A stretch of DNA of 64,000 nucleotides from Raillietiella orientalis. Its lineage: Eukaryota. The position numbers and the translations under genes were made by a program. This document shows, in pieces, positions 25,120-64,000 of the stretch. The notes below the pieces were generated by a model, which saw only the letters and a program-made list of their open reading frames with translations, ran no database searches and was not told the origin of the DNA. The first letter of the stretch is position 1; the number at the start of each line of letters is the position of its first letter. The stretch spans positions 7,502,001-7,566,000 of the forward strand of contig JAYWIR010000001.1 in NCBI GenBank assembly GCA_036172245.1. Reading direction: 5' to 3'.

Positions 25120-28516
<3,397 letters not shown>

Positions 28517-45978: not shown

Positions 45979-48025
45979 CACGACTTCCACAAAATCTTCG
46001 ATAGAAAACAAAGAATTTGGGATGATAAAGGCCAGTTGAAGGAAGAGATCCTCCTCAGTCGTTGCCAACTCATTTCAACAACTGAAAGCTTTGGAACAAT
46101 GCCCGAATCCAAAGGTTATGGGAAATACAGACACCAGGAGAGGAGCATTTCGGACCTAAATTTGCAAACGTGCTCCCGGTGGGGCGTCACTATCATTCAC
46201 TCTTCCGGAATGCTTTATCCATTACTAAGAACTACGAAAGCCAATGGTATACTCGAGAAACTGCACGAGGGTGAGGCCATCAGGAAACAGAAACGACTCC
46301 TCAAATGGGAGGTCTCAGATGATTCTGCATCTCTCTCCCACATTGATAATCGCGACCATAACCAACAAAAGAAATTTATGCTCTCAGACAAGCGATGCTT
46401 GTCAAGCTCACCATAATGACGCTTCATGTTGACTTCGAAAAGCAATTTTAGACATGCACATTTTCATGGATTTTTCCTGAGGAAACTCGCAATCGGGAGA
46501 CGGAACTAAGATTAGTGCTGAACTTTCCGTTGTTGAGTCCGGGAATGCCAAGTGCTACCTCAAATCAACATAGCCTTACCAGTATATCACTAGGAAAGTC
46601 ATAAAGAAGGAACATTTGGATAAGATTGATGTGATGGCCATTGCTCACAAAGATGCTCAACTCGAATGCTTTTGAGAAGTGAGAAACAAGCAGCTATATA
46701 TGAGGGGCGGGGTATGCACTGTTTTCTTGCAATGTGTACAGTGGCCACGAGAATTTACATTCCCTAGAAAGGTCCAACGAGCTAAAATGATGCATGAGGG
46801 TTTTCAGAGGGCATGCAGATGATTTTCTTGAGGGCTTTGTAACTGTTTTTTTTATGATGTTTCTAAAGAACGTCTTTATGAGCTAGCATGATCATCTAAT
46901 TCCGTGAACAGAGGGATTCCTGCCATAGTCACGAATCTTTGTCTCAACAGGAACTCCACCAAACCTCATCAGGACCTCATGTGAATCGTTTAATTCAGAG
47001 TAAGGCATCACGCGTTCTCTGGAGAACGTTTGATGGTTTTCTGTTTGTGCTTCCTAAGTCTGTGAATAGATTTTGAAGTTTAGTGTAAAGAGAATTTGTT
47101 GTCCCGTAGTTTCACGAAAGATGAGGAAAAATCCAACAATGTTAGGAGAGATCTCATACCTATACTAGCGACGAAACATGATGATCTGAATAACTTATGT
47201 AATGTAACAGCGTGCACGACAGGATTCTATATCGAACAAAATTAGACTCTAATAAGATTGTGTATGTATTTAATTCGATCGAAAATCATTTCATCAATGA
47301 TATATGACTTAGATCATTGTCAAATATTTATGAAAACTTGACAGAATGAATGATACGGTGATTTGATGAATGAATTAAGCAACGCTCAGCTTTAAGATAG
47401 ATATTAGAAGAATGAATTTTCGAATTCGATTTAAAATCTTATTGAACCATTGGCAAGAAACTGAAGGCAGCAGCAACATCACAGCTGCTAAACTGATCTT
47501 GCTAAACTGGAAACTTAAGTTAGAGGATGTGTTAGAGATTTCAAAATCATCGGTACTCTTATCGAAAGGGAGGCGGACTCCACTACCCAGAGGTTTTTAA
47601 ATACTCATTTTTGTAATTTTAGATTCACTTGCAGTGCTTCCGCAAAATCGTGACATTTAAATAAAGATCATAACTCCTTAAATTTTCTCAGAACATGCCA
47701 CCTTATTTAAATTTTTAGAACTCTTTATTAATCACATTAATCACATCAGCTGTCAATCTTACCATACAAAAAAATTACCATGACACATCTCCAACATTTG
47801 CAAATTTACGTTCGAAATCCTCCACTCCTGGTGTGTGTATTTCTCATAACTCTTTGATTCAGCCATTTCACCTTGTTCCAAAATGTCCAGGTGTTGAATA
47901 GAGTTGAGAACGACTGAGGAGAATCTCATCCTTCAACCAGTTTTCATCCGGAATTCTTCCTCTTCTGTTGAAGATTTCTCTTGACTTGTGCATCGTAAAG
48001 TACACTTCACGATTTTTGGAAATCA
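45979..48025. repeat. Diverged inverted duplication of ~200 nt (45979-46175 + versus ~47790-48025 -)
   Basis: TTGAAGGAAGAGATCCTCCTCAGTCGTT...GAAATACAGACACCAGGAG..TAAATTTGCAAA aligns with the reverse complement TTGAAGGATGAGATTCTCCTCAGTCGTT...GAAATACACACACCAGGAG..TAAATTTGCAAA. Confidence 0.75.
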
Positions 48026-51400: not shown

Positions 51401-52514
51401 ATTGAATAAAGCAATGAAAATACTTATTGTTTGGCAATGATGTATCAATTTACAGTGATTAAGTCAACGTTATTTATCGAGTTTGTTGTCATTTACAATC
51501 CATTGTATTCAGTGAAAACAATTATTTATTTATTATTATAAAGGAATCTAAAGCTTTAAATAGGCTATATAAAGTTTGCTTCATATTTTGTGTATGTTGT
51601 AGGGAGAAAAAGAGACATTATACAAATGCTAAATTCAACACAATTAAAAGGAAGTTTTTTAAGCAAGAAAGTGGCCTGAATCTGTTAAGCTGGGCTGCCA
51701 AAGAACAGATTCGGCAGTTGCATTCCGAAAATCCCGATCATTGGACTCCCGAGGTGCTTTCTAAGAGCTTCCCAGCATCTCCAGAAATTATAAAAGTATG
51801 CAATTATTCCTTTCATTTTTGAGTTGGATGTTTAAAATATTTGCTAAATTATTTTAAAACTTGAGAATTTAATCGGTTTTTGATGTCTGCTCTAGAAAAT
51901 CCTGAAAAGTAAATGGGTTTTAAAGGATAAAGAGATTCAGCGTCATGATGCAAAAGTTGCTGAAAACTGGAAAATAATTGCCAGGCAAAAAGATGCCGAG
52001 AAACTCCCAGAAATGAAACAAATAACCGGATTGTTTCCACATTTGCATAAACATCCAGGGAATGGTAAGTATGTGAAACTTGAACGAACTGGTGTATTTA
52101 AAACTGAATTTAGATATGTGTGCTCCAGAGCCTGAGCCTAGTGAAAAAAATCCTAAAAACATTGGCATATTTGGGCATCTCATTAGAGCATTTGAAAACT
52201 CCGTGAATTATGAATCAAACAATGAACTTGTTTCTGCAAAAGAACTTCATCCAAGTACTAAGCATACTGATCATAAAAAGAAAACCGTTGACAAATCAGT
52301 TGACAAACAACGAAAAGTTGATATTGCTTTACATGCCCTGAGACATCAGCACCACCCTTCTATGAATGAACCATCTGTTTCCGTCATGAACGATATTCCA
52401 GAAGAAAGAATAACCATACCTACTGATCAACCTCAAGGAAAGCTGTATCGTTGCCGAAATCATTTTTATTGTGCCAGTGGAGAGTATTTGTATAGCATTC
52501 CTGAAGGATTATGA
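48482..52514 (+). CDS. NGRN: Neugrin (mitoribosome biogenesis factor)
   Basis: Exons at about 48482-48562, 48618-48712, 48821-48989, 51604-51796, 51896-52064 and 52114-52514. Motif LLSWAAKEQIRQLHSENPDHWTPEVLSKSFPASPEIIKKILKSKW...HDAKVAENW and C-terminal FYCASGEYLYSIP. The 5' exons and start codon are less certain. Confidence 0.85.
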
Positions 52515-52578
52515 TGGGATTGGGTGCAGTTTGGGTATTCAATTATAAAATGAAAAATTGCCTTTACTTGTAGAATCG

Positions 52579-55232
52579 ATGTGTGCGTTTGTCCGAACTG
52601 AGAAAAAAAACAGAAAGGTTCCTTTGAGGAAATCAACCAGACTGAACCTATGTAATAAAGTAGGTACGTGTTTGACACCTAATAAACGGACTTCTTTGGA
52701 ACGTTGGCTCTCAGCCGTTCCAGATGTCACAAAGGGTGACAATCTTTACGAAATAGATCCAAACGACAAGTATGCAATCCATTTAATTCCTTTTTTCTAT
52801 AGTAATTACAGTTCAAAAATTGCAGAGCTTGATATACAGTACTTGAAGAAAGAATATCCATCGCCTGATTTCTCTGACGCACATGCCATAATCTCAGAGG
52901 AGATTGCAGAATCTCCTTGTACACCACATGGAAATCAGAATGCCACGTTTTCTGGTGTTCAGTGCCAAAAAAGCTGCCCAGCTCGTATTTCCAGTGACAC
53001 AAGTGATATATCACCCTGTCTAGTTAGTGCTCCATATAGCATTCCAAGACAACCATACACACAAACAAATCATAATTTGGATTCTGTCCGTCGCTCCTTA
53101 TTTTCTCTTTCTCCATCTCCTTATTATTTATCCCATTTTGTCCATCTTGTTTGTTCAGCTGTAGATGATGACCATCATAAACATTTATTTAATGAAAGTG
53201 ACATTCATGTAGTGCAACGTTTTCGTTGTCTTCACCTTGATGCCAGGAAGCTGTATGTACGCCTTTTTCAGAGAAAACCTGGTTTTTTAAGGCCTTCTGA
53301 AATGCAATATGGGGAAATTGATACTGATGTGAATCAAGTGCTCAAAGAATTGTCCCAGCAAGGATTTGTGCAAAGTTGTAAGTGCACAACACTTTACTAG
53401 CCAAGTGATCACTGGAGGTGAAGTAACATGTCCACTCCATGAAGTACTGGAACTGCTGAAAGTTCCGGAACTCAAGGCATTATGTCGAAAGATGCATTTA
53501 AGTGTTTCCGGAACAAAAGATCAGATGATCACACAGCTGATGCAGTTGTCAGTCAAGCAGCGCAGGCTTTTTTCATGTGAAGACATAAGTCATTGTATCT
53601 TGGTCAAGTAAGCTTTTGTCAGTTAATCATACATGATTTTTTTTTTTTTCAAATAGGGCTCAAGAGCTTCTTGGTTCCTGTTATCGAGTAACTTCTGGAC
53701 CAAGAACAGTATTCATGAGAGCTTTGTTGTTGAGTACATTTCCCAATTATCATGACTTCCGAGCTGTGCAATATCCACTTTTAGCAGAGATGAAAACCTT
53801 GATGGGTGTTACATATCCTTCTTATAATGTTCATCGAAAAACAAGGCTCTACATGAATCGGGACGATTTTTTGTCATTTCAAGAGGCAGTTCAATCATTG
53901 TGGGAACTAAAACATCTAATGGAAAATCGAAGATACAAAGAGGGCATACCTTTGAATAGTAATGCTAAACAAGCAATGATACAACTGCTCAAGAGTGACT
54001 TTTGTACATATCATGAACAGTTGGCACCATTTTTACGTTACTATACATCAGGCACAGCATATTGCTTCATGCTTGATGTAGGTGTACAGATACTTCAGCG
54101 ATTGCGTCTTTATGCTGAAGCTGTTGAACAGTTGCGATTCTTACTTAACCAAACTACATATCTGACAAACAGACGTGGCAAATGGTTTGACCGCTTGGCT
54201 CTAAACTTGGAAAAACACTTAAAAAGAAAGAAAGAAGCTTTGGATGCTGCTGTTTCAGCATTAGATGATCCGGAAGTTCGTGAAGCCTCTTATCTTTCTC
54301 TTCATCAAAGAGCCCAAAGAATCAGCAACACTTTGAAAGTGACAAACTGGTTTGTGCCAGAGAATTCCCAGTACTGTGCTACAGGAGATGAAGTGCCTCA
54401 CACAGAAATTGTAGCCCGATCTCTATCAATGGAAATGACAGGGGAAAACATTAAATTTCTTCATCCATCTTCTCAGAGCTTGAGTTTTCAAGTATGCAAT
54501 GTAGAAGAAATAGTTATAGCTCATTATCAGAGTAAAGGGTATCCCCTTGGTAAGTGCATCAGCAATTATCAAGTTATGTGGAAGATAAATGTTATTTAGG
54601 AGTACATGGAGAAAGTAGCATTTATCACACCCTTTTGGGACTTTTTTTCTGGGATGTCCTTTACGAAAACTCAGTGCCAGATGTCTTCCTCAGTAAATAC
54701 CAGACATTGCCTTTAGATATGAATTCGGATCATTTCTATGCAAATCGCAAACTGCTGATAGATACACGATTGGAAGACTTACGGAGATGGCCGGTGGCAG
54801 AAGCACATAAATTTTTACAGTGTATTTGGGAGAAAAACTCAGGTGTTTCTTCCATAGTTAATTGGAAATTATTTGAGCTCCAGCAGTTGAAAAGTTTAGT
54901 GACATGCATGGGAACATTATTGATTGCTGGCATATGTGAAAGGCTGCTAAAGAATTTTTACCACACTCGCAGTGGGCTTCCAGATCTCATTGTCTGGAAT
55001 CCTGATGAACATGTATATCGCATTATTGAGGTTAAAGGTCCCAATGATATCTTATCTTCTAAGCAGGTGTTGTGGTTGGCATACTTAAACAAACTGGGTG
55101 CAGTAGCAGAAGTGTGTCATGTTAAAGGTAATGTTGTAGACATAATGACATTTTCATGCTATTTTGTGTATAGCAATTGGACCCAAAACTCTCACAGATT
55201 GTCAGAGTAATGAGGCAATCCATGTTGATTGA
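52579..55232 (+). CDS. FAN1: Fanconi-associated nuclease 1 (SAP, TPR and VRR-NUC domains; no UBZ seen)
   Basis: KLYVRLFQRK; SAP LELLKVPELKALCRK...GTKDQMI; RRGKWFDRLALNLEKHLK; VEEIVIAHY..GVHGESS..GLFFWDV; RSGLPDLIVWNP..IEVKGPNDILSSKQVLWL..AEVCHV. Four short introns near 53378, 53608, 54550 and 55128; stop at 55230-55232. The start may lie at 52511/52514 instead (see findings). Confidence 0.93.
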
Positions 55233-57624
55233 AAGTCACATTTTTTTAGCTTTTGACTTTATGCTCCATTGTGGAGAATTAGCTTTCATCTGAACTTGTC
55301 ATCTGCATAGAAATATTTCATTGTAGCCATCATTTGGATGGCTACAGTATGGAGTTATCAGTTCAGTTTAAGTATGTACGTAATTGGATTGTGTTTATTT
55401 TGAAAATGGTTTGAAAATAAGAATATAAGTAAGATGATTTATCAGTAAAACAGTACTTTTACCAAGTCTACCTAATGCTCACTTGATAACAGGATTGTGA
55501 CTTGAGTCAGTTGTAAATAAATGTAGGAGATGGGATTGCGAGGGAGGGAGATGCGATTCCTTATTCGAATAAAATTTCAAAAACAGTAGTCACTTGACTA
55601 TACTTCCCCTTAGTACAAGCATTTATTAGGAATGCATTAAGAAGGAATAATTGGGAATTTGAACCATCGACTTATTGAATCTCCTCTTCAAAGAGTCCGC
55701 ACTTACCCAGCAAATTCGATTCTTTACACAAAAATAGTTTATGTTCGGTTAGGCACATACATAATCTTTCCAGTGTTTGAAGTATTCTTAGTTGCACTGA
55801 GGACATACGGCATTACTCAAGTACACAAAAGAAATGCATGGAGACAAATCAAAATAGATAAGAAACTAAAGTGCTAAGTGCAGGGGCAAAGATTTTATCT
55901 GACGGGCAGAATGGAATTACAGATGAATAACATAATCTGACAAAATGCATTGATAGGTAAAGAGTATGATGAGTATAAATGCCTTGGTCAAAAGATGGCG
56001 AAAAAATTGAAAATGAGGTACTACGCATAAAGTAAACTGGAACAAATCATTTTGAAATTTGTTTGAAAATTACAGTAGGTTGTCACGTCTTGGGGTTGAT
56101 GTTTTTTAAGGTTTTCAAGTGGTGAACGCTGGCATCTGTGCATAACGCAACACTCTAAGAACATAATACCGCAAACTGTGCGCCATCAAAACTAAAAGCT
56201 GGTCCTGTAATGGGTTTCTGCTTTAATTAGAAAACATAAATATGATTTCATCGTTTCATTAGTTGCTTTGCTATCAAAACGCATGAAAACTAATGGGATT
56301 GACAAATTGGTATAAAATTATCGATCACCACCAATTGTCAACATTTTTCTCAGATCCCACAAGCAGTGGGGCGAATTTACTTATCTTAATAATTTTTATA
56401 AACATGAGTATTGCTGTAAACACGAGTCGATCACGAACCTACACAGAGCACACAGTCTCTCCTTGAAGTCCATACTGAAGGAGACACTTCAGAGTTGCTA
56501 ACACAAGTCAGTGGAATCTCACTAGATATCCTTCAAAAACTCGCGATTTTCCAAAAAAAATCTCCAGACTTTAATACCTAGGAATTTGTTATTATCATTA
56601 TGATCTTGAATGAAACAATGAATGAAAATAATACAATACACACCTAATAATTTAACCTAACACTCAAGCCCCGTAGTGAGGGGACATCAATCCAGAGATA
56701 TCCAGCAACGATAAAAGGACTAATAGTGAATATGCTTTTGCTGCTCGACTTATCAAAAAACAAACAAAATCTGGACTTTGTGCACAAATAGATTCTTAAA
56801 AAAAGTTTGAACGGCAAATAGCATCTGGTTTTAAACAGATAAGGAGCTGTGATCGAAACTTATGGTTTGCGTGTTGATTCCCCGTATATTTCTGGGTGTA
56901 TGTTAAGGTACTACACAAATGCTTCAGCTCAGAGATCAAGTGGAAATTCAGCTCAGCTGACGAGCCTCGTGAGACACGGACATTCCACACATTTCTGGGA
57001 CTTCGGGCATTGATACAATAATTGCTATCATATCCCCACAAAGGAAATTGAGATGTGCCTCGAATCGGAGGTGCCATAACCGTACAGACTGCTGCGTATT
57101 CCACGATTTTTCATCAGAAAGTTCAGCGAAATTGACGAACCCTACCATTTTGAAAATTAACTCTGGGAGGATGTGGTGGTGCAAGATAGATTTCTTAGGA
57201 CCTACAGAATATCAAGAAAAGAGGAACTGCAGTTTGATCTGTTGAATCATTTAACGCTATTTCGATTTTTTGGAAAACAAATGGAAAACAATTTGCACAG
57301 GTGATGATTTGTGAATTGAAAGTGTTTTTTGGAAATATATATATCTATATATACAGATTTCCAAGATAAACATATGTATGTATTTATTTCCAAGCAACAC
57401 TTTCAATACATGTAGTAGCTCCTAGTGGTTTGGACTTTCAGTACATGCAGCGGCAAAATAGAACAGGGATTCCAAGCATTGCTAACATTGAATTGGGCCT
57501 CAAGCAGCCACTGATGCTTTTTGATTAAGTCCGGAAAACCTGTCCGTGCTCAAAAATTAAGGTGGAAAATTTCTGTATGAGGGAGGCTTTTTTTCAAAAT
57601 AAAAATATTAAATCTGGCTTGCTA

Positions 57625-58400: not shown

Positions 58401-61132
58401 ATGGGGAATCAGAAAAGTAGTGTGAGAGATTTGGGATTACCAAAATATGTGAGAATTATCTTGGAACTAAAGGACTGAATGCAATTTCTGAATTTCAGTT
58501 CTATGGTAATGGAAAGGAAACGACTTCAGATTTACTAAAATATGATTCACATGCATACTTTCTACGAAAAAATTCTGATGAACCAGGTTAGGTGTAGCTA
58601 TCTCAATACAAGTTGCTATGTTTACCCATATCTAGAATGTCTTACACTTTCGTCTGATGAAGATGAAAATACTCATGGTTGTTGTAAAAGAATAGTGAAA
58701 TGTCCTAAAGAAGGATTATCCCAGAAACAACCCAGTGTCAATGCTGGTCACAATTATACTTTCCTTCAGTGTCGTACTGTTCGAGTAGGTTCTTATCGAG
58801 TAGCTCCTCAGGAAAGAGTAGTAATCAATCATGAAGGCATCAAGATTATTGTGCCACCTGTAGTTAATTGTAAGAGAAATATAATATTGCTCGATGTTTT
58901 TTTTTGCCCTCATTTTGCAAAGGTGATGCTGATCCAGTGGTGCTGAGAATTTCTTTAGAAAGTATGTTGCAAATCTTAGTACACTTTGGGAATGCTTTCC
59001 CTGCAATTTTTGTTTACACCAAACCCTCTGGGGCAGCTCACATAAGAGAGATACTAAAAATGACAGATCCTAATGGCCCCTATTATGATCCTCGAAGTGA
59101 TAATGAAGCACAGAAACTGATAACTATTTTGCCAGAATCACTCAAAGAAGATGCCAAAGTTGTTATTCAACAGCTGTTTGCTAGTTTTCAGAGTATTTTT
59201 CAGGAAATCAATGAAAAGGATGCCAATGATATTTTAGTACGTTCCTCACCCAGTAGTGTAAGTTTGACGGATAGTGCAGATGGGAAAGGTTTGATGATTG
59301 TGTAGGAATCCAATAATCTTGCGAAAATTCCACGCAAATCGAGCCCTGCTCCTGCCCCTGTTTCAACTGCATACTCTTCTAAGATCGTACCATCCAGAAT
59401 GACGAGGGTGGCAACACAGGATCCAGCTGCTCCTCAAACGTAAGAACGTATTTTTTCCCCGCAATTCTTTTTACAGTCGGTTGTTTTCTCCTCAGCATTC
59501 TCATTTGGCCCCCTCCTCCCACTAAAGGTGGAATTACTATAACAACAAACGATTATGTTTGTCTTGAAGAAGAGCAGTTTCTAAATGATGTTATAATTGA
59601 TTTTTATTTAAAGTAAGAATCATTAGCTGCTTGCAAATATTGCACTTAGGTACTTGAAAATAGATACTTACTCTTGGAGAAGCTATCAGAAGAAGATCGT
59701 GTTAGAACCCATATTTTTAGTTCTTTTTTCTATCAACGTTTAACAACGAGACCAAAGAACCAGCGTTCTAATTCTTCTGAAATGGATCCTAAGTTAACTC
59801 CGGCTGAAAAACGCCATAGCCGGGTTAGAGGATGGACTAAAGGAGTGGACATTTTTGCCAAGGACTTTGTCATAGTCCCCATTAATGAACAGTTGAGTAC
59901 ATGGACAGTAGGGCAAGAAAAATAACATTTTTGTTTTCAGTGCTCATTGGTTTCTAGCCATAATCTGTTTTCCTGGGATTGAGCCTACCTTCTCATCAGA
60001 TGCACCAGCAAAAGTTGTTTCCAAACCAGACCATAGATTAAGCAACTTTTTTAATCATGGTAAAAGACCAAATGCAGCTTCATCTGCAGCAGAGATGCAG
60101 TTAATGCAAATTGGAGCAACAACCATCACCCCTATTAAAAGTAATCTAAGTCCTGTGATGGCTCTCCAGCATCAACCAGCTACAATTCCTTCACCAATGT
60201 TCTACTCTGATGAGGATTCTTCAGATCGGGATGAAGCTGAAAGTGATGAAGATACAGAGGATGAAACATATTTGGTGAGTTGAGCGTTAGCGTAGTAAAA
60301 TAACAGTTAATCAACCTTTCAACACACTATTCCTCTGTTACATTTTGAAGTTGTACTGTACAGGTTTTTTTTTTTTTTTTTTTCCTGTCTATTTTAGCAG
60401 ACACATCAGAAGCCACAAAATGCAGATAATAGTGAGCAGCAATTAGTTCAGGAGTAAGTACATGTACTTTTTTATTCTTATCACATCTTTATTCTTATCC
60501 CTTGTCATTTTAGGCCATGCATTTTGATTTTTGATTCTTTGGTGGGATGTAGTCGATCACGAATATTTGCAACTTTACGAGACTATTTAGAAGTTGAATT
60601 CAAAGCGAGACACAAGTGTGAGCGCAAGTTTACCCGCTCTAACATGCGTTGTCAAGTATTAGAGGTTCCACAGCAAACAAATTTTAGTGACTGTGGCATA
60701 TATCTGTTACAGTATGTGGAAAGCTTTTTTGAACACCCAATACCTTGTTTTCAATTACCACTTCCCAAAATGACGAACTGGTTCCCTGAAGAGAAAGTAC
60801 TCAGCAAACGGCATCAAATACAAAAACTAATTAAGCGACTGATTCAGCAACAGAATTTGACAAGCTTTCAAGATTCTGGCTCAAGTACCAGAACTGAGAA
60901 GAACGTAATTTCAGATTCACACGCCTGTCAGTCTAGTGTCTCTGCTAATTATAACGTGCATATGAATGACAGTGTGCCTTTAATTTCTCCCCCCAATGCT
61001 TTTTCGGAAGAGTGCCATGCTAATTTTTCTAATGCAACCGACCCCCTTCCATTGTTCGGACGTGCATTCTTGACCCCGGCTCTGGTGTTCTTTTTCGGTT
61101 GTTCCTTTTGGGTGTGGCTCATTTTATATTAG
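58401..61132 (+). CDS. SUMO protease of the SENP6/SENP7 (Ulp2/veloren-like) subfamily
   Basis: Spliced exons encode [95 protein letters not shown] (His); PCILIFDSL (Asp); [21 protein letters not shown] (Cys). The true 5' start is uncertain. Confidence 0.9.
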
Positions 61133-61902: not shown

Positions 61903-62074
61903 CGAGTGGCCGAGCATTTTGCAGCGACGGATGTCAGGGGTCCTCGCGAAACGACGGGCGTGCAAATACGCCCTTTCGTTACGGAAGGACGTGTTTTTCC
62001 GTTGCTCCGTCAACAAGTACCGGGAAGCGGTTTCTTCTTGGGAAGTGTGTGTTTTTTCACATCGTTGGTGTCCG

Positions 62075-63831
62075 ATGGCATCGCTGCCAGAGGACACCAC
62101 GATGGAGGTAGGCGTGGGGGAGGCTAGTCCCCCCCCACGGCCTACTGGATCAGGGACATCCGCCCCGGACTCATCCCCGGCAATGCCGAGGACGTGGAGC
62201 GCCATGGTGGCCGCGCCGAGCGCGGAAACCTTGGCGGAGCAAGCGGCTTACAGGGCCTCAGGATATAAACCATCTCTGGTTTATAAGGTAGGACCCCTGT
62301 TTGATGGTCGCACCGCCCGGGCCTTCAGTAAGGCACTACAGGACTTTCCTGTAAGAGAAGAGGATCTTGACGGCCTCTCCGTACTCAGCGGGGGGCAGCG
62401 CGTGGAGGTCGTCTGCAAAGACGTAGCCTTAGCACAGCGCCTGATAAACACCCCGCTGAATGTGGATGGCCGGAAAATCCTATCGGTTAGCATGGACCGC
62501 TCCGTAGTGGTCCATCTAACCGGAATCACAAATCGGATGACGCGCTCGGCGGTCAATTCCGAGTTGATGAAATACGGAGAGGTACACGCGTTGTGGCCAA
62601 AGCCCACCATCTTCGAAGGCTTTCATAGCCATTCGGAGGCCAGGCTGCAGCGCGTGTCACTGTCAATGAGGGTGCTGGGTTGCCCCACAAACTGGAGGTC
62701 GCGAAGGTATCCGTCGACCTCTGGTACGTGGGGAAACCCCGCTATTGTGGCTACTGCAATGCAGTAGGGCACTTGCGCAAGCGGTGCCCGAACATTGAGT
62801 GCCACTTGTGCGGGGTTAAGGGACACGTGCGTCGTGTGGGCCCTAAACGCCCCACCCCGGTGCCACCTGCTGCCAAAAAGGCGCAGGCCAAAAAAATGAA
62901 CAAGGTCGAAAGACCTAAGCGGGAAACTGGCCGGCCCCAGCCGCCATCTCCTCTTGCTCTCACCCAGGCGTCGGAGGATAAAACCGCGGAAGACGCGGGA
63001 GTGGAGGAGGGATGGCAACTGGTAAAGGCCAGGAAGGAGAAACAAGTGGTGAAAGAACCACTGGAGAAAACGGAGAAAAAGAACACGGCCGACAAAAAGA
63101 ATAAAGCCGCGCCGCTGTCAAACAAACTCCGCGAGTGCTCGGTAGCACTAGATCGCGTAAGCGTTCCTGAGGCTGCCACCTGGGGCGACGAGCCTCCCCT
63201 CGCCGTTTCCGCCGCGCCCGAGGTTCGCGCAGGCGAACCCTCTGTTTACACAGGGGGTGAGCCGCGCGACGCGCGCGCCGACGGCGAGGACGACGCCTTC
63301 GCGAAGGCGGCGGAGGAGCTCGCGGTCACGCTGGCCGAGCGTGAAAACCCCTCACGCAAGGCCGTGCGCAGGCCGGCTCCGCCGAAGAAGGCCCCCGAAG
63401 GTGAGTTCGACCTGGGGGCCGGAAGTGCATCCTCCTCCTCGGAGGCACCCCCCCGGAAGACGGGACGTAAGTCCCAAAAACCGAGGAGGCGCCTCCCCTC
63501 CACGAGCGAGGAGGAGAAGCCGGAAGCCGACGCCAGCGTGGGAAACCCGGAGGTGGAATTCCCACGCACGGAAGCCGTCGAGCAGGCCACCCCCATGGAG
63601 GAGGGTGAAGAGGGGGGCGAAGTCCTCCCTGTAGTCGCCGAACCTGAACAGCCCGCCCCCATGGAGGAGGGCGAACAGGGAGGCGCGACCCCACCTGAGG
63701 GTGAACCGGCCGACGCGCCGTTACCCATGGAGGAGGGGGACCAGGTGCCTTCAGCACCTGACCCTCCCCCTCCACCTAGCGTCCCGCCCCAACAGGTGGC
63801 GGGAGCCCCATTGCCACTTTCCCAGGAGTAA
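62075..63831 (+). mobile_element. Tx1-like ORF1 copy B (gag-like, CCHC knuckles, acidic/Pro tail), one frameshift near 62680
   Basis: RTWSAMVA...GYKPSLVYKV...VVHLTGITNRMT; CGYCNAVGHLRKRCPNIECHLCGVKGH; EGWQLVKARK; stop at 63829-63831. Confidence 0.88.
63592..63745 (+). repeat. 66-nt (22-aa) periodic repeat in the ORF1 tail
   Basis: CCCATGGAGGAGGG (PMEEG) with the ATG at 63595, 63661 and 63727. Confidence 0.85.
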
Positions 63832-64000
63832 CACCTGGGCTCGCCTGTCGCCGTCGGATCCGCGTGGCCAGTTGGAACGTCAACGGGCTGCGCGACGACG
63901 GCAACAGACGAGATACGGCCGACACCCTGCGCGACTTCGACCTGGCGCTCCTGCAGGAGATCCACGTGATCACCGCGGAGAACGCCCAGGAGATCGAGAG
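63810..64000 (+). mobile_element. Start of Tx1-like ORF2: APE endonuclease N-terminus, running off the window
   Basis: IRVASWNVNGLRDDGNRRDTADTLRDFDLALLQEIH from 63858, in the -1 frame relative to ORF1. Confidence 0.9.

Follow-up and report, generated by a model that had tools for sequence, protein, structure and literature searches.

How is FAN1 expressed when its start codon lies 64 nt beyond the stop codon of a neugrin-like gene (NGRN)? The two genes stand head to tail in a window of 64,000 nucleotides (the whole stretch of DNA that was analysed), with the NGRN TGA at 52512-52514 and the FAN1 ATG at 52579, both on the + strand. Such spacing hints at shared or overlapping transcripts. A preliminary description of the locus had proposed that FAN1 is expressed from a transcript shared with NGRN, either by stop-start coupling at an ATGATG surrounding the stop codon or by trans-splicing. 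We tentatively favour an answer in which our confidence falls a little short of even: that NGRN and FAN1 form tandem units that overlap and are separated at the level of RNA processing, not of translation.

Gene organisation

The window is gene-poor; the other genes that can be recognised in it encode a kinase (~26-28 kb) and, at ~59.6-61.1 kb, a C48 peptidase. Exon models for the pair were built from reading frames, phases and homology. Those for NGRN are as follows.

51603..51795, + strand: neugrin-like coding exon, the first located; carries Pfam Neugrin PF06413, begins at the third base of a codon and is without a Met
51896..52064, + strand: neugrin-like coding exon; open frame whose phase matches the adjoining exons
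52129..52514, + strand: last neugrin-like coding exon; TGA at 52512-52514, within a 145-codon open frame (52077..52514)

The Neugrin match on the first of these exons has an E value of 5.1e-6 and scores 26.7 bits against a gathering cut-off of 24; single-exon Pfam searches found no family for the other two of the three. This exon is bordered by an acceptor, TGTTGTAG, ending at 51602 and by a donor, GTATGC, at 51796, and the two NGRN introns measure 100 and 64 nt. Scans of phase and donors across 30-51.6 kb did not locate a first exon bearing the ATG. The open frame 52077..52514 closes with ...YSIPEGL before the stop. No homologue of the last exon was found among 1.84 billion representatives, and none of eight candidates scored when the Neugrin-domain exon was compared with longer proteins.

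The FAN1 gene is made up of five predicted coding exons.

52579..53377, + strand: first coding exon, HTH domain (FAN1_HTH, E 3.5e-12); contains the only usable ATG; donor GTAAGT at 53378
53418..53607, + strand: exon with SAP domain (SAP, E 2.5e-9; Fan1_SAP, E 1.3e-7)
53657..54549, + strand: exon with TPR domain (FAN1_TPR, E 3.8e-38)
54600..55127, + strand: exon with VRR-NUC nuclease domain (VRR_NUC, E 1.8e-26)
55174..55232, + strand: predicted last exon, TGA at 55230-55232; placed by frame, phase and likeness to the decapod end

The domain order, HTH, SAP, TPR, VRR-NUC, is that expected of FAN1, and the introns are short (40, 49, 50 and ~46 nt). Compared with longer proteins, the TPR exon gave 63 matches from 2900 candidates, vertebrates and decapods among them; the best identity is 36-37%, and vertebrate and decapod FAN1 are equally similar (35-37%). 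The predicted last exon ends ...VCHVKAIGPK, compared with ...VCHVEAIGAK in decapods. For the first exon none of 162 candidates scored among proteins of near length, and the N-terminal UBZ zinc finger present in vertebrate and decapod FAN1 is absent from it: its C..C...H...C pattern found no match, and tblastn gave no meaningful match anywhere in the window, the best (E 0.011) lying in a GC-rich block on the opposite strand. The FAN1 frame is open from 52549, with its first ATG at 52579 and the next in-frame Met ~240 codons further on. A 56-nt GT-AG stretch within the first exon (52770-52825) was rejected as an intron, which would break the frame.

The neugrin-like gene and FAN1 are two separate genes. 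The identities first given to them are upheld, by PF06413 on one of the three NGRN exons and by the four FAN1 domains, and direct reading reproduced all of the earlier coordinates for the NGRN stop, the FAN1 ATG, the ATGATG, the acceptor and the hexamers. These identities and coordinates, with the exon phases and the motif statistics given below, are matters of observation.

Sequence elements at the junction

The elements on which any account of FAN1 expression must draw are these.

52511..52516, + strand: ATGATG surrounding the NGRN stop, with ATGs at 52511 and 52514
52511..52573, + strand: 20-codon ORF opened by the ATGATG (translation), with a third in-frame ATG at 52550 and TAG at 52571-52573
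52524..52573, + strand: candidate 50-nt GT-AG intron; donor tgg/GTGCAG, good acceptor
52544..52550, + strand: TATAAAA, a possible TATA box or variant poly(A) hexamer; four occurrences in 11 kb
52559..52573, + strand: TGCCTTTACTTGTAG, a motif resembling a 3' splice site, 5 nt short of the FAN1 ATG; nine of 11 positions from -5 to -15 are pyrimidines
52654-52659 and 52681-52686, + strand: AATAAA pair, 140 and 167 nt past the NGRN stop, in FAN1 codons 26-36
55516..55573, + strand: AATAAA pair with hexamers at 55516 and 55568, ~284 and 336 nt past the FAN1 stop

Two of these exceed chance: the acceptor-like sequence, which reads ...CCTTTACTTGTAG and ends at 52573, and the AATAAA pair past the NGRN stop. 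The former had been called a good acceptor, and its pyrimidine score does tie with the best of six real acceptors (7, 7, 6, 5, 9 and 5 out of 11), although pyrimidine richness is a crude measure and real local acceptors are often poor (5-7 of 11). Chance backgrounds were counted over the 22-62 kb part of the 64-kb window. A comparable acceptor lies within 20 nt upstream of 19 of 808 ATG triplets on the + strand and 18 of 797 on the - strand; a site this pyrimidine-rich lies within 10 nt upstream of 1.4% of ATG triplets. The motif at 52573 exceeds chance, the background being 1.4-2.4% of ATGs. Its rarity lends indirect support to possible splicing at this point, which might join a leader in cis or in trans. 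No leader exon or spliced-leader (SL) gene was identified; Rfam searches of the window gave no family at gathering score, with one chance-level match (E 0.51) in 51-56 kb.

The distribution of poly(A) signals bears on the other side of the junction. As the preliminary description had it, no AATAAA lies between the NGRN stop and the FAN1 ATG, the next sites being at 52654 and 52681, inside FAN1 exon 1; a 64-nt stretch free of AATAAA is expected 95-96% of the time. Neither AATAAA nor ATTAAA occurs in 52515-52573, where the only related hexamer is TATAAA at 52544. Across 51600-55700 the + strand holds just four AATAAA hexamers, at 52654, 52681, 55516 and 55568, one pair for each stop codon. The Poisson probability of finding two or more in the 200 nt that follow the NGRN stop is 0.008-0.012, a value that, like all the motif P-values here, is post hoc and drawn from a single window. 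The pair at 52654/52681 probably represents putative poly(A) signals for NGRN, and that at 55516/55568 probably those for FAN1.

An ATGATG surrounds 23 of the 805 TGA triplets in 22-62 kb (2.9%), with ATGA alone at 30%, and its presence at the NGRN stop does not beat chance. The 20-codon ORF that it opens does not share the FAN1 frame and reaches its stop, TAG 52571-52573, 5 nt upstream of the FAN1 ATG. A TGGGA at 52515-52519, downstream of the NGRN stop, is one of 16 in 11 kb; we take it to match the viral TURBS motif.

Besides the TATAAAA at 52544, the spacer region contains an ATCGAT core (52575-52580) that overlaps the FAN1 ATG; both are possible promoter elements and were counted against a tandem unit. 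This core presumably resembles the insect DRE motif.

A proposed model of overlapping tandem units

How might these elements work together? In the reading that we tentatively prefer, cleavage and polyadenylation of the NGRN mRNA would take place downstream of the AATAAA pair at 52654/52681. The 3' UTR of this mRNA, of ~160-190 nt, would therefore extend across the beginning of FAN1, taking in its start codon and roughly 30 codons. The FAN1 mRNA would owe its 5' end to a non-coding leader spliced to the putative acceptor whose last base is 52573. This leader could come from an upstream cis exon, either FAN1's own or one common with NGRN, or could be a spliced leader, if the species trans-splices. 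Splicing would discard NGRN sequence together with three upstream AUGs (52511, 52514 and 52550), leaving AUG 52579, 5 nt beyond the splice junction, to be reached first by ordinary scanning. In favour of this reading stand the same-strand gap of 64 nt in a window poor in genes, the acceptor-like motif, and the placing of one AATAAA pair behind each stop codon. A further point is that any unspliced 5' UTR beginning upstream of 52553 would include AUGs, and the ORF that these open stops 5 nt short of the FAN1 AUG. That the acceptor is used, that NGRN uses the AATAAA pair and that a primary transcript is shared at all are inferences.

Alternative explanations

The main rival, named in the preliminary description as the mundane alternative, places a promoter for FAN1 within the last NGRN exon or within the 64-nt spacer. 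FAN1 would then have a capped, unspliced 5' UTR, and the NGRN 3' UTR would overlap the 5' end of FAN1 with no common transcript. Same-strand UTR overlaps are described as common in Drosophila (PMC4528330), and the AATAAA pair in FAN1 exon 1 suits overlapping UTRs equally well. The TATAAAA at 52544-52550 sits 29-35 nt ahead of the acceptor/ATG region, and the ATCGAT core overlapping the ATG occurs only twice in 11 kb. A TATA-directed start, however, falls ~30 nt downstream of the TATA box and would here leave a 5' UTR of 0-5 nt before AUG 52579, whereas starts further upstream would put AUGs 52511, 52514 and 52550 and the 20-codon ORF before FAN1. The FAN1 AUG itself is flanked by T at both -3 and +4, a context that we take to be weak under the Kozak rule, and the strong acceptor motif would be left to chance (1.4-2.4%). 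We regard an internal promoter as rather unlikely, though it deserves to be taken seriously.

Could both ORFs instead be read from one mature dicistronic mRNA, with FAN1 translated by internal entry or reinitiation? The 64-nt gap falls inside the stop-to-start range of -34 to 319 nt given for Drosophila loci that make only polycistronic mRNAs (PMC4528330), and the short ORF lies exactly between the stop of NGRN and the start of FAN1. A relay is possible, in which ribosomes would restart at AUGAUG, translate the 20 codons, terminate at UAG 52571-52573 and reinitiate at AUG 52579; but only 5 nt separate this UAG from the AUG, a small distance for reinitiation. Leaky scanning to FAN1 is excluded because the upstream ORF is long and has many AUGs. 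RNA folding revealed no unusual structure in 52430-52600 (z +0.27, matched or bettered by 117 of 200 shuffles) or in 52505-52590 (z +0.62), and Rfam gave no IRES or other family. Such an mRNA would also have to ignore two AATAAA hexamers 75-107 nt into FAN1. Taken as a whole, a dicistronic mRNA seems to us improbable.

Translational coupling of the two genes, in which termination at UGA would be followed by restart at AUGAUG and then by the 20-codon relay or by reading into FAN1 across a removed 50-nt intron, is disfavoured by the out-of-frame AUGs, the odd donor, the lack of unusual structure and the 64-nt gap; we consider it very unlikely. Were it true, FAN1 output would be a fixed fraction of neugrin synthesis.

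The intron-dependent form, with 52524-52573 removed, AUGAUG as the FAN1 start and terminating ribosomes restarting as in caliciviruses, influenza B or SART1, is scarcely credible. Direct reading agrees that the removal brings both ATGs into the FAN1 frame, and the 50-nt size is typical here, as had been claimed, introns nearby measuring 40-50 nt; A at -3 and G at +4 surround AUG 52514, and stop and start would overlap as in the known cases described in PMC10275272. The donor, already recognised as weak, is nevertheless unlike all six real donors, each of the form GTA[AT][GT]N, from which GTGCAG at 52524 departs at +3 to +5. An ATGATG around TGA is a 2.9% chance event and the match of frame a one-in-three one, folding revealed no structured element upstream of the NGRN stop, and the added residues are without homology support in a region where FAN1 N-termini align unreliably.

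Finally, alternative splicing that joined the acceptor at 52573 to the NGRN donor (52064/52065) and skipped the last NGRN exon would give an in-frame fusion of the neugrin domain to FAN1 (the donor leaves G and the acceptor supplies AA, reading GAA-TCG-ATG), but this phase compatibility is a one-in-three chance, none of the 63 FAN1 matches lists Neugrin among its precomputed Pfam domains, and there is no known rationale for joining a mitochondrial factor domain to a nuclear nuclease. We consider a fusion protein highly improbable.

Comparison with known systems

Parallels exist in Drosophila, for which 159 dicistronic pairs are reported and 2.5% of genes are said to share transcripts (PMC4528330). 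The dicistronic, shared-promoter, shared-5'-exon and UTR-overlap loci among the FlyBase 'rule-benders' described there likewise bring together unrelated same-strand genes, the gaps at dicistronic loci covering a range that includes 64 nt. An arrangement of overlapping tandem units has precedent. A common leader exon or overlapping UTRs may exist here too. The fly cases are defined by cDNA, transcription start sites and RNA-seq, whereas NGRN-FAN1 is known from its sequence.

Operons resolved by SL trans-splicing, in nematodes, tunicates, flatworms and chaetognaths, offer a second comparison. Intercistronic cut-offs in the literature reviewed in PMC7986045 are 60-100 bp (84 bp for Ciona, 60 bp for Oikopleura), a range that the same-strand 64-nt gap fits. 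Like such operons NGRN-FAN1 has, at the level of motif, a sequence resembling an acceptor just ahead of the AUG of the downstream gene. It differs from them in that its canonical poly(A) signals lie downstream, not upstream, of the putative trans-splice site, and in its gene-poor window, which contrasts with operon-rich compact genomes. The position of the AATAAA pair relative to that site was also counted against a tandem unit, a canonical SL operon having its poly(A) signal upstream. Copepods and amphipods trans-splice, and PMC7986045 gives operons as unreported in them by 2021.

Caliciviruses, influenza B and SART1 offer a third comparison. TURBS-type reinitiation, as described in PMC10275272, involves stop and restart codons that overlap or lie no more than about 20-30 nt apart. 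As in caliciviruses, influenza B M1/BM2 and the UAAUG of SART1, the NGRN stop is overlapped by AUG triplets, but these lie outside the FAN1 frame, the ORF upstream belongs to a cellular gene, and no stable structure was detected at the junction. The FAN1 AUG, 64 nt away, is beyond the reach of this mechanism, known cases having 20 nt or less, and would be close only if the 50-nt intron were removed.

An alignment scan of metagenome contigs found 54 loci with FAN1 relatives; a single-protein scan of the same kind of contigs, and the prokaryote genome contigs, gave no relative. With the NGRN exons as queries, tblastn gave no match below E 3.4 in any of the 54 loci, and Pfam found no Neugrin in 147 + strand ORFs upstream of FAN1 in eight of them, a set that leaves aside 14 ORFs of L002, L009 and L023. 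These loci belong to distant taxa, with only L005 spanning several kb upstream, and say little about conservation of the pairing.

Biological implications

The literature searched made no mention of a pairing of NGRN with FAN1, and we regard the locus as a candidate of a kind well documented in flies, nematodes and tunicates. The NGRN 3' UTR probably overlaps FAN1 coding sequence. The practical value lies in a warning for annotation, since gene predictors could fuse NGRN and FAN1. If the species is a trans-splicing crustacean, the pair would represent an operon in a group for which PMC7986045 notes none by 2021. If the two genes do share a common primary transcript, a nuclear nuclease of interstrand-crosslink repair and a factor for mitochondrial ribosome assembly would come under common regulation.

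Gene models

The plus strand of the window carries a neugrin-like gene (NGRN) and, head to tail with it, the gene for the DNA-repair nuclease FAN1, the exon models of both being based on sequence alone.

Predicted exons of NGRN (from open frames, phases and splice signals) and FAN1 (sequence-only models)
51603-51795, plus strand, NGRN exon
51896-52064, plus strand, NGRN exon
52129-52514, plus strand, NGRN last exon
52579-53377, plus strand, FAN1 exon 1
53418-53607, plus strand, FAN1 exon 2
53657-54549, plus strand, FAN1 exon 3
54600-55127, plus strand, FAN1 exon 4
55174-55232, plus strand, FAN1 exon 5

For NGRN, the stretch 51604-51795 matches the Pfam family Neugrin (E 5.1e-6; 26.7 bits, cut-off 24), and the remaining two exons, each searched singly against Pfam, match no family. 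No start-codon exon was found in a scan of 30-51.6 kb (~20 kb upstream, with no coding exon). The first recognisable exon, at 51603, lacks a methionine and opens on the third base of a codon, a G, after which comes a strongly basic stretch, EKKRHYTNAKFNTIKRKFF; that the start codon is formed across this junction, by a leader ending in AU, is speculation. Upstream of NGRN lies an inverted repeat of ~185 nt (45992-46171 and 47794-47977, 77% identity), which may mark the two termini of a mobile element.

FAN1 has the Pfam domains FAN1_HTH (3.5e-12), SAP (2.5e-9), Fan1_SAP (1.3e-7), FAN1_TPR (3.8e-38) and VRR_NUC (1.8e-26), with modelled introns of 40, 49, 50 and 46 nt. The N-terminal UBZ finger known from vertebrate and decapod FAN1 is missing from it, and the whole window yielded no exon resembling a UBZ; ~180 residues precede the conserved PYYL/HTH region, whereas the aligned vertebrate and decapod proteins have ~370-690. 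Its identity to decapod and to vertebrate FAN1 is the same, at 35-37%. Within exon 1 lies a candidate 33-nt mini-intron (52770-52802, plus strand), with a donor, GTATGCAA, identical to that of the NGRN intron at 51796 and a strong acceptor, CCTTTTTTCTATAG; its removal keeps the frame, and it may be too short for a real intron.

Other features of the window

Elsewhere on the plus strand are a protein kinase spread over at least three exons (26244-28235; Pkinase at 26244-26444, 26456-26791 and 28032-28235) and an Ulp1/SENP-type peptidase C48 domain (59650-61129; two open frames, E 7e-12 each), across which GC content rises. In the kinase a long non-kinase open stretch (27095-28012) separates the DFG and APE regions, as in Greatwall/MASTL kinases; its N-lobe exons were not found. 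GC-rich blocks (1-22000 and 62000-64000; 56-64% GC) adjoin the gene region (31-49% GC), with a sharp fall near 22 kb. They contain few internal repeats, and a Pfam search with the 70 ORFs that reach 130 aa or more in 1-22 kb gave no family. They look like non-coding GC-rich DNA and may come from chimeric assembly.

Signals at the NGRN-FAN1 junction

On re-reading, every coordinate in the preliminary description of the junction proved correct. The NGRN stop, TGA 52512-52514, lies inside ATGATG (52511-52516); the FAN1 ATG at 52579 is the first, and only usable, one in frame; the 64-nt spacer contains no poly(A) signal hexamer AATAAA, which occurs at 52654 and 52681 within FAN1 codons; an acceptor-like motif, CCTTTACTTGTAG, ends at 52573; and excision of the 50-nt GT-AG stretch 52524-52573 brings both ATGs into the FAN1 frame.

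These features differ in what they tell. The absence of AATAAA from 64 nt, with an expected frequency of 95-96%, is uninformative. Against a background of 22-62 kb, 23 of 805 TGA triplets (2.9%) stand in an ATGATG context, and ATGA alone accounts for 30%. The acceptor motif before the FAN1 ATG is unusual: 9 of its 11 bases from -5 to -15 are pyrimidines, a score that ties with the best of six real acceptors (7, 7, 6, 5, 9 and 5), and a comparable acceptor ends within 20 nt upstream of only 19/808 ATG triplets on the plus strand and 18/797 on the minus strand, or within 10 nt upstream of 1.4%. Unusual, too, is the AATAAA pair after the NGRN stop. The region 51600-55700 holds four such hexamers, one pair per gene after its stop (140 and 167 nt past that of NGRN, ~284 and ~336 nt past that of FAN1); given 0.65-0.82 hexamers per kb locally, the chance of two within 200 nt is P 0.008-0.012, a value that, like those for the other junction motifs, is post hoc and from a single window.

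Expression of FAN1

The acceptor and the AATAAA pair, the two features in excess of chance, speak for RNA processing. The AATAAA pair suggests that the NGRN mRNA would end within FAN1 exon 1, and from the acceptor, which ends 5 nt short of the ATG, the FAN1 mRNA would be expected to start with a leader joined at 52574, which may be an exon in cis or a spliced leader (SL). Such splicing would also strip upstream AUGs carried by any longer unspliced 5' UTR. We favour this model tentatively, as falling a little short of probable, and give its cis and trans versions about equal weight. Several of the groups that trans-splice (nematodes, flatworms, larvaceans and rotifers) commonly have very short introns.

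The main rival, which we consider rather unlikely, is that FAN1 is transcribed from an internal promoter. An ATCGAT core overlapping the FAN1 ATG and the TATAAAA at 52544 may be promoter elements; a TATA-directed start, however, would leave FAN1 almost no 5' UTR, before an AUG in weak context (T at -3, T at +4).

A mature dicistronic mRNA of any kind, with FAN1 reached by internal initiation or relay reinitiation, seems improbable, and the specific stop-start coupling first proposed fares much worse. Unspliced, the AUGs overlapping the stop are out of the FAN1 frame: they open MMGLGAVWVFNYKMKNCLYL and stop at TAG 52571-52573, which contains the AG of the acceptor. The frame-correcting donor, tgg|GTGCAG, agrees at +3 to +5 with none of the six real donors (GTATGC, GTAAGC, GTAATG and, in three copies, GTAAGT). 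RNA folding is no more stable than in shuffles at 52430-52600 (z +0.27) or 52505-52590 (z +0.62), and an Rfam search of the window returned no family. According to a review (PMC10275272), termination-reinitiation needs a structured upstream element and loses efficiency past ~30 nt, and the viral-type elements (TURBS) all have stop-to-start distances of at most 20 nt. The FAN1 AUG, in contrast, lies 64 nt from the NGRN stop, and we therefore rate this coupling as highly improbable. By phase, the donor at 52064 would also allow an in-frame fusion of NGRN to FAN1, which is equally hard to credit.

Relatives and known arrangements

The protein collections yielded no close relative for either gene: 63 proteins, at up to 37% identity, matched the TPR exon of FAN1, and none matched FAN1 exon 1, the last exon of NGRN or the exon with the neugrin domain. 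Distant FAN1 relatives are encoded at 54 metagenome loci, with neugrin upstream at none of the 54 by tblastn; by Pfam, Neugrin is absent from 147 upstream ORFs at 8 loci, a set that left out 14 ORFs of three short loci. Since just one locus has several kb of upstream sequence and neugrin is poorly conserved, this linkage evidence is weak, and the loci would speak only weakly against an ancient NGRN-FAN1 linkage. A literature search gave no paper naming both FAN1 and neugrin.

Related arrangements are nevertheless on record. In Drosophila there is ample documentation of dicistronic, shared-leader and overlapping tandem genes, with 159 dicistronic pairs, transcript sharing in 2.5% of genes and stop-to-start distances of -34 to 319 nt (PMC4528330). 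By the account of PMC7986045, SL operons are an established feature of nematodes and tunicates, and copepods and amphipods, although they trans-splice, had yielded no report of operons (for copepods see also PMC4664967). The NGRN-FAN1 candidate of Raillietiella orientalis would at best take its place among these already documented gene arrangements.
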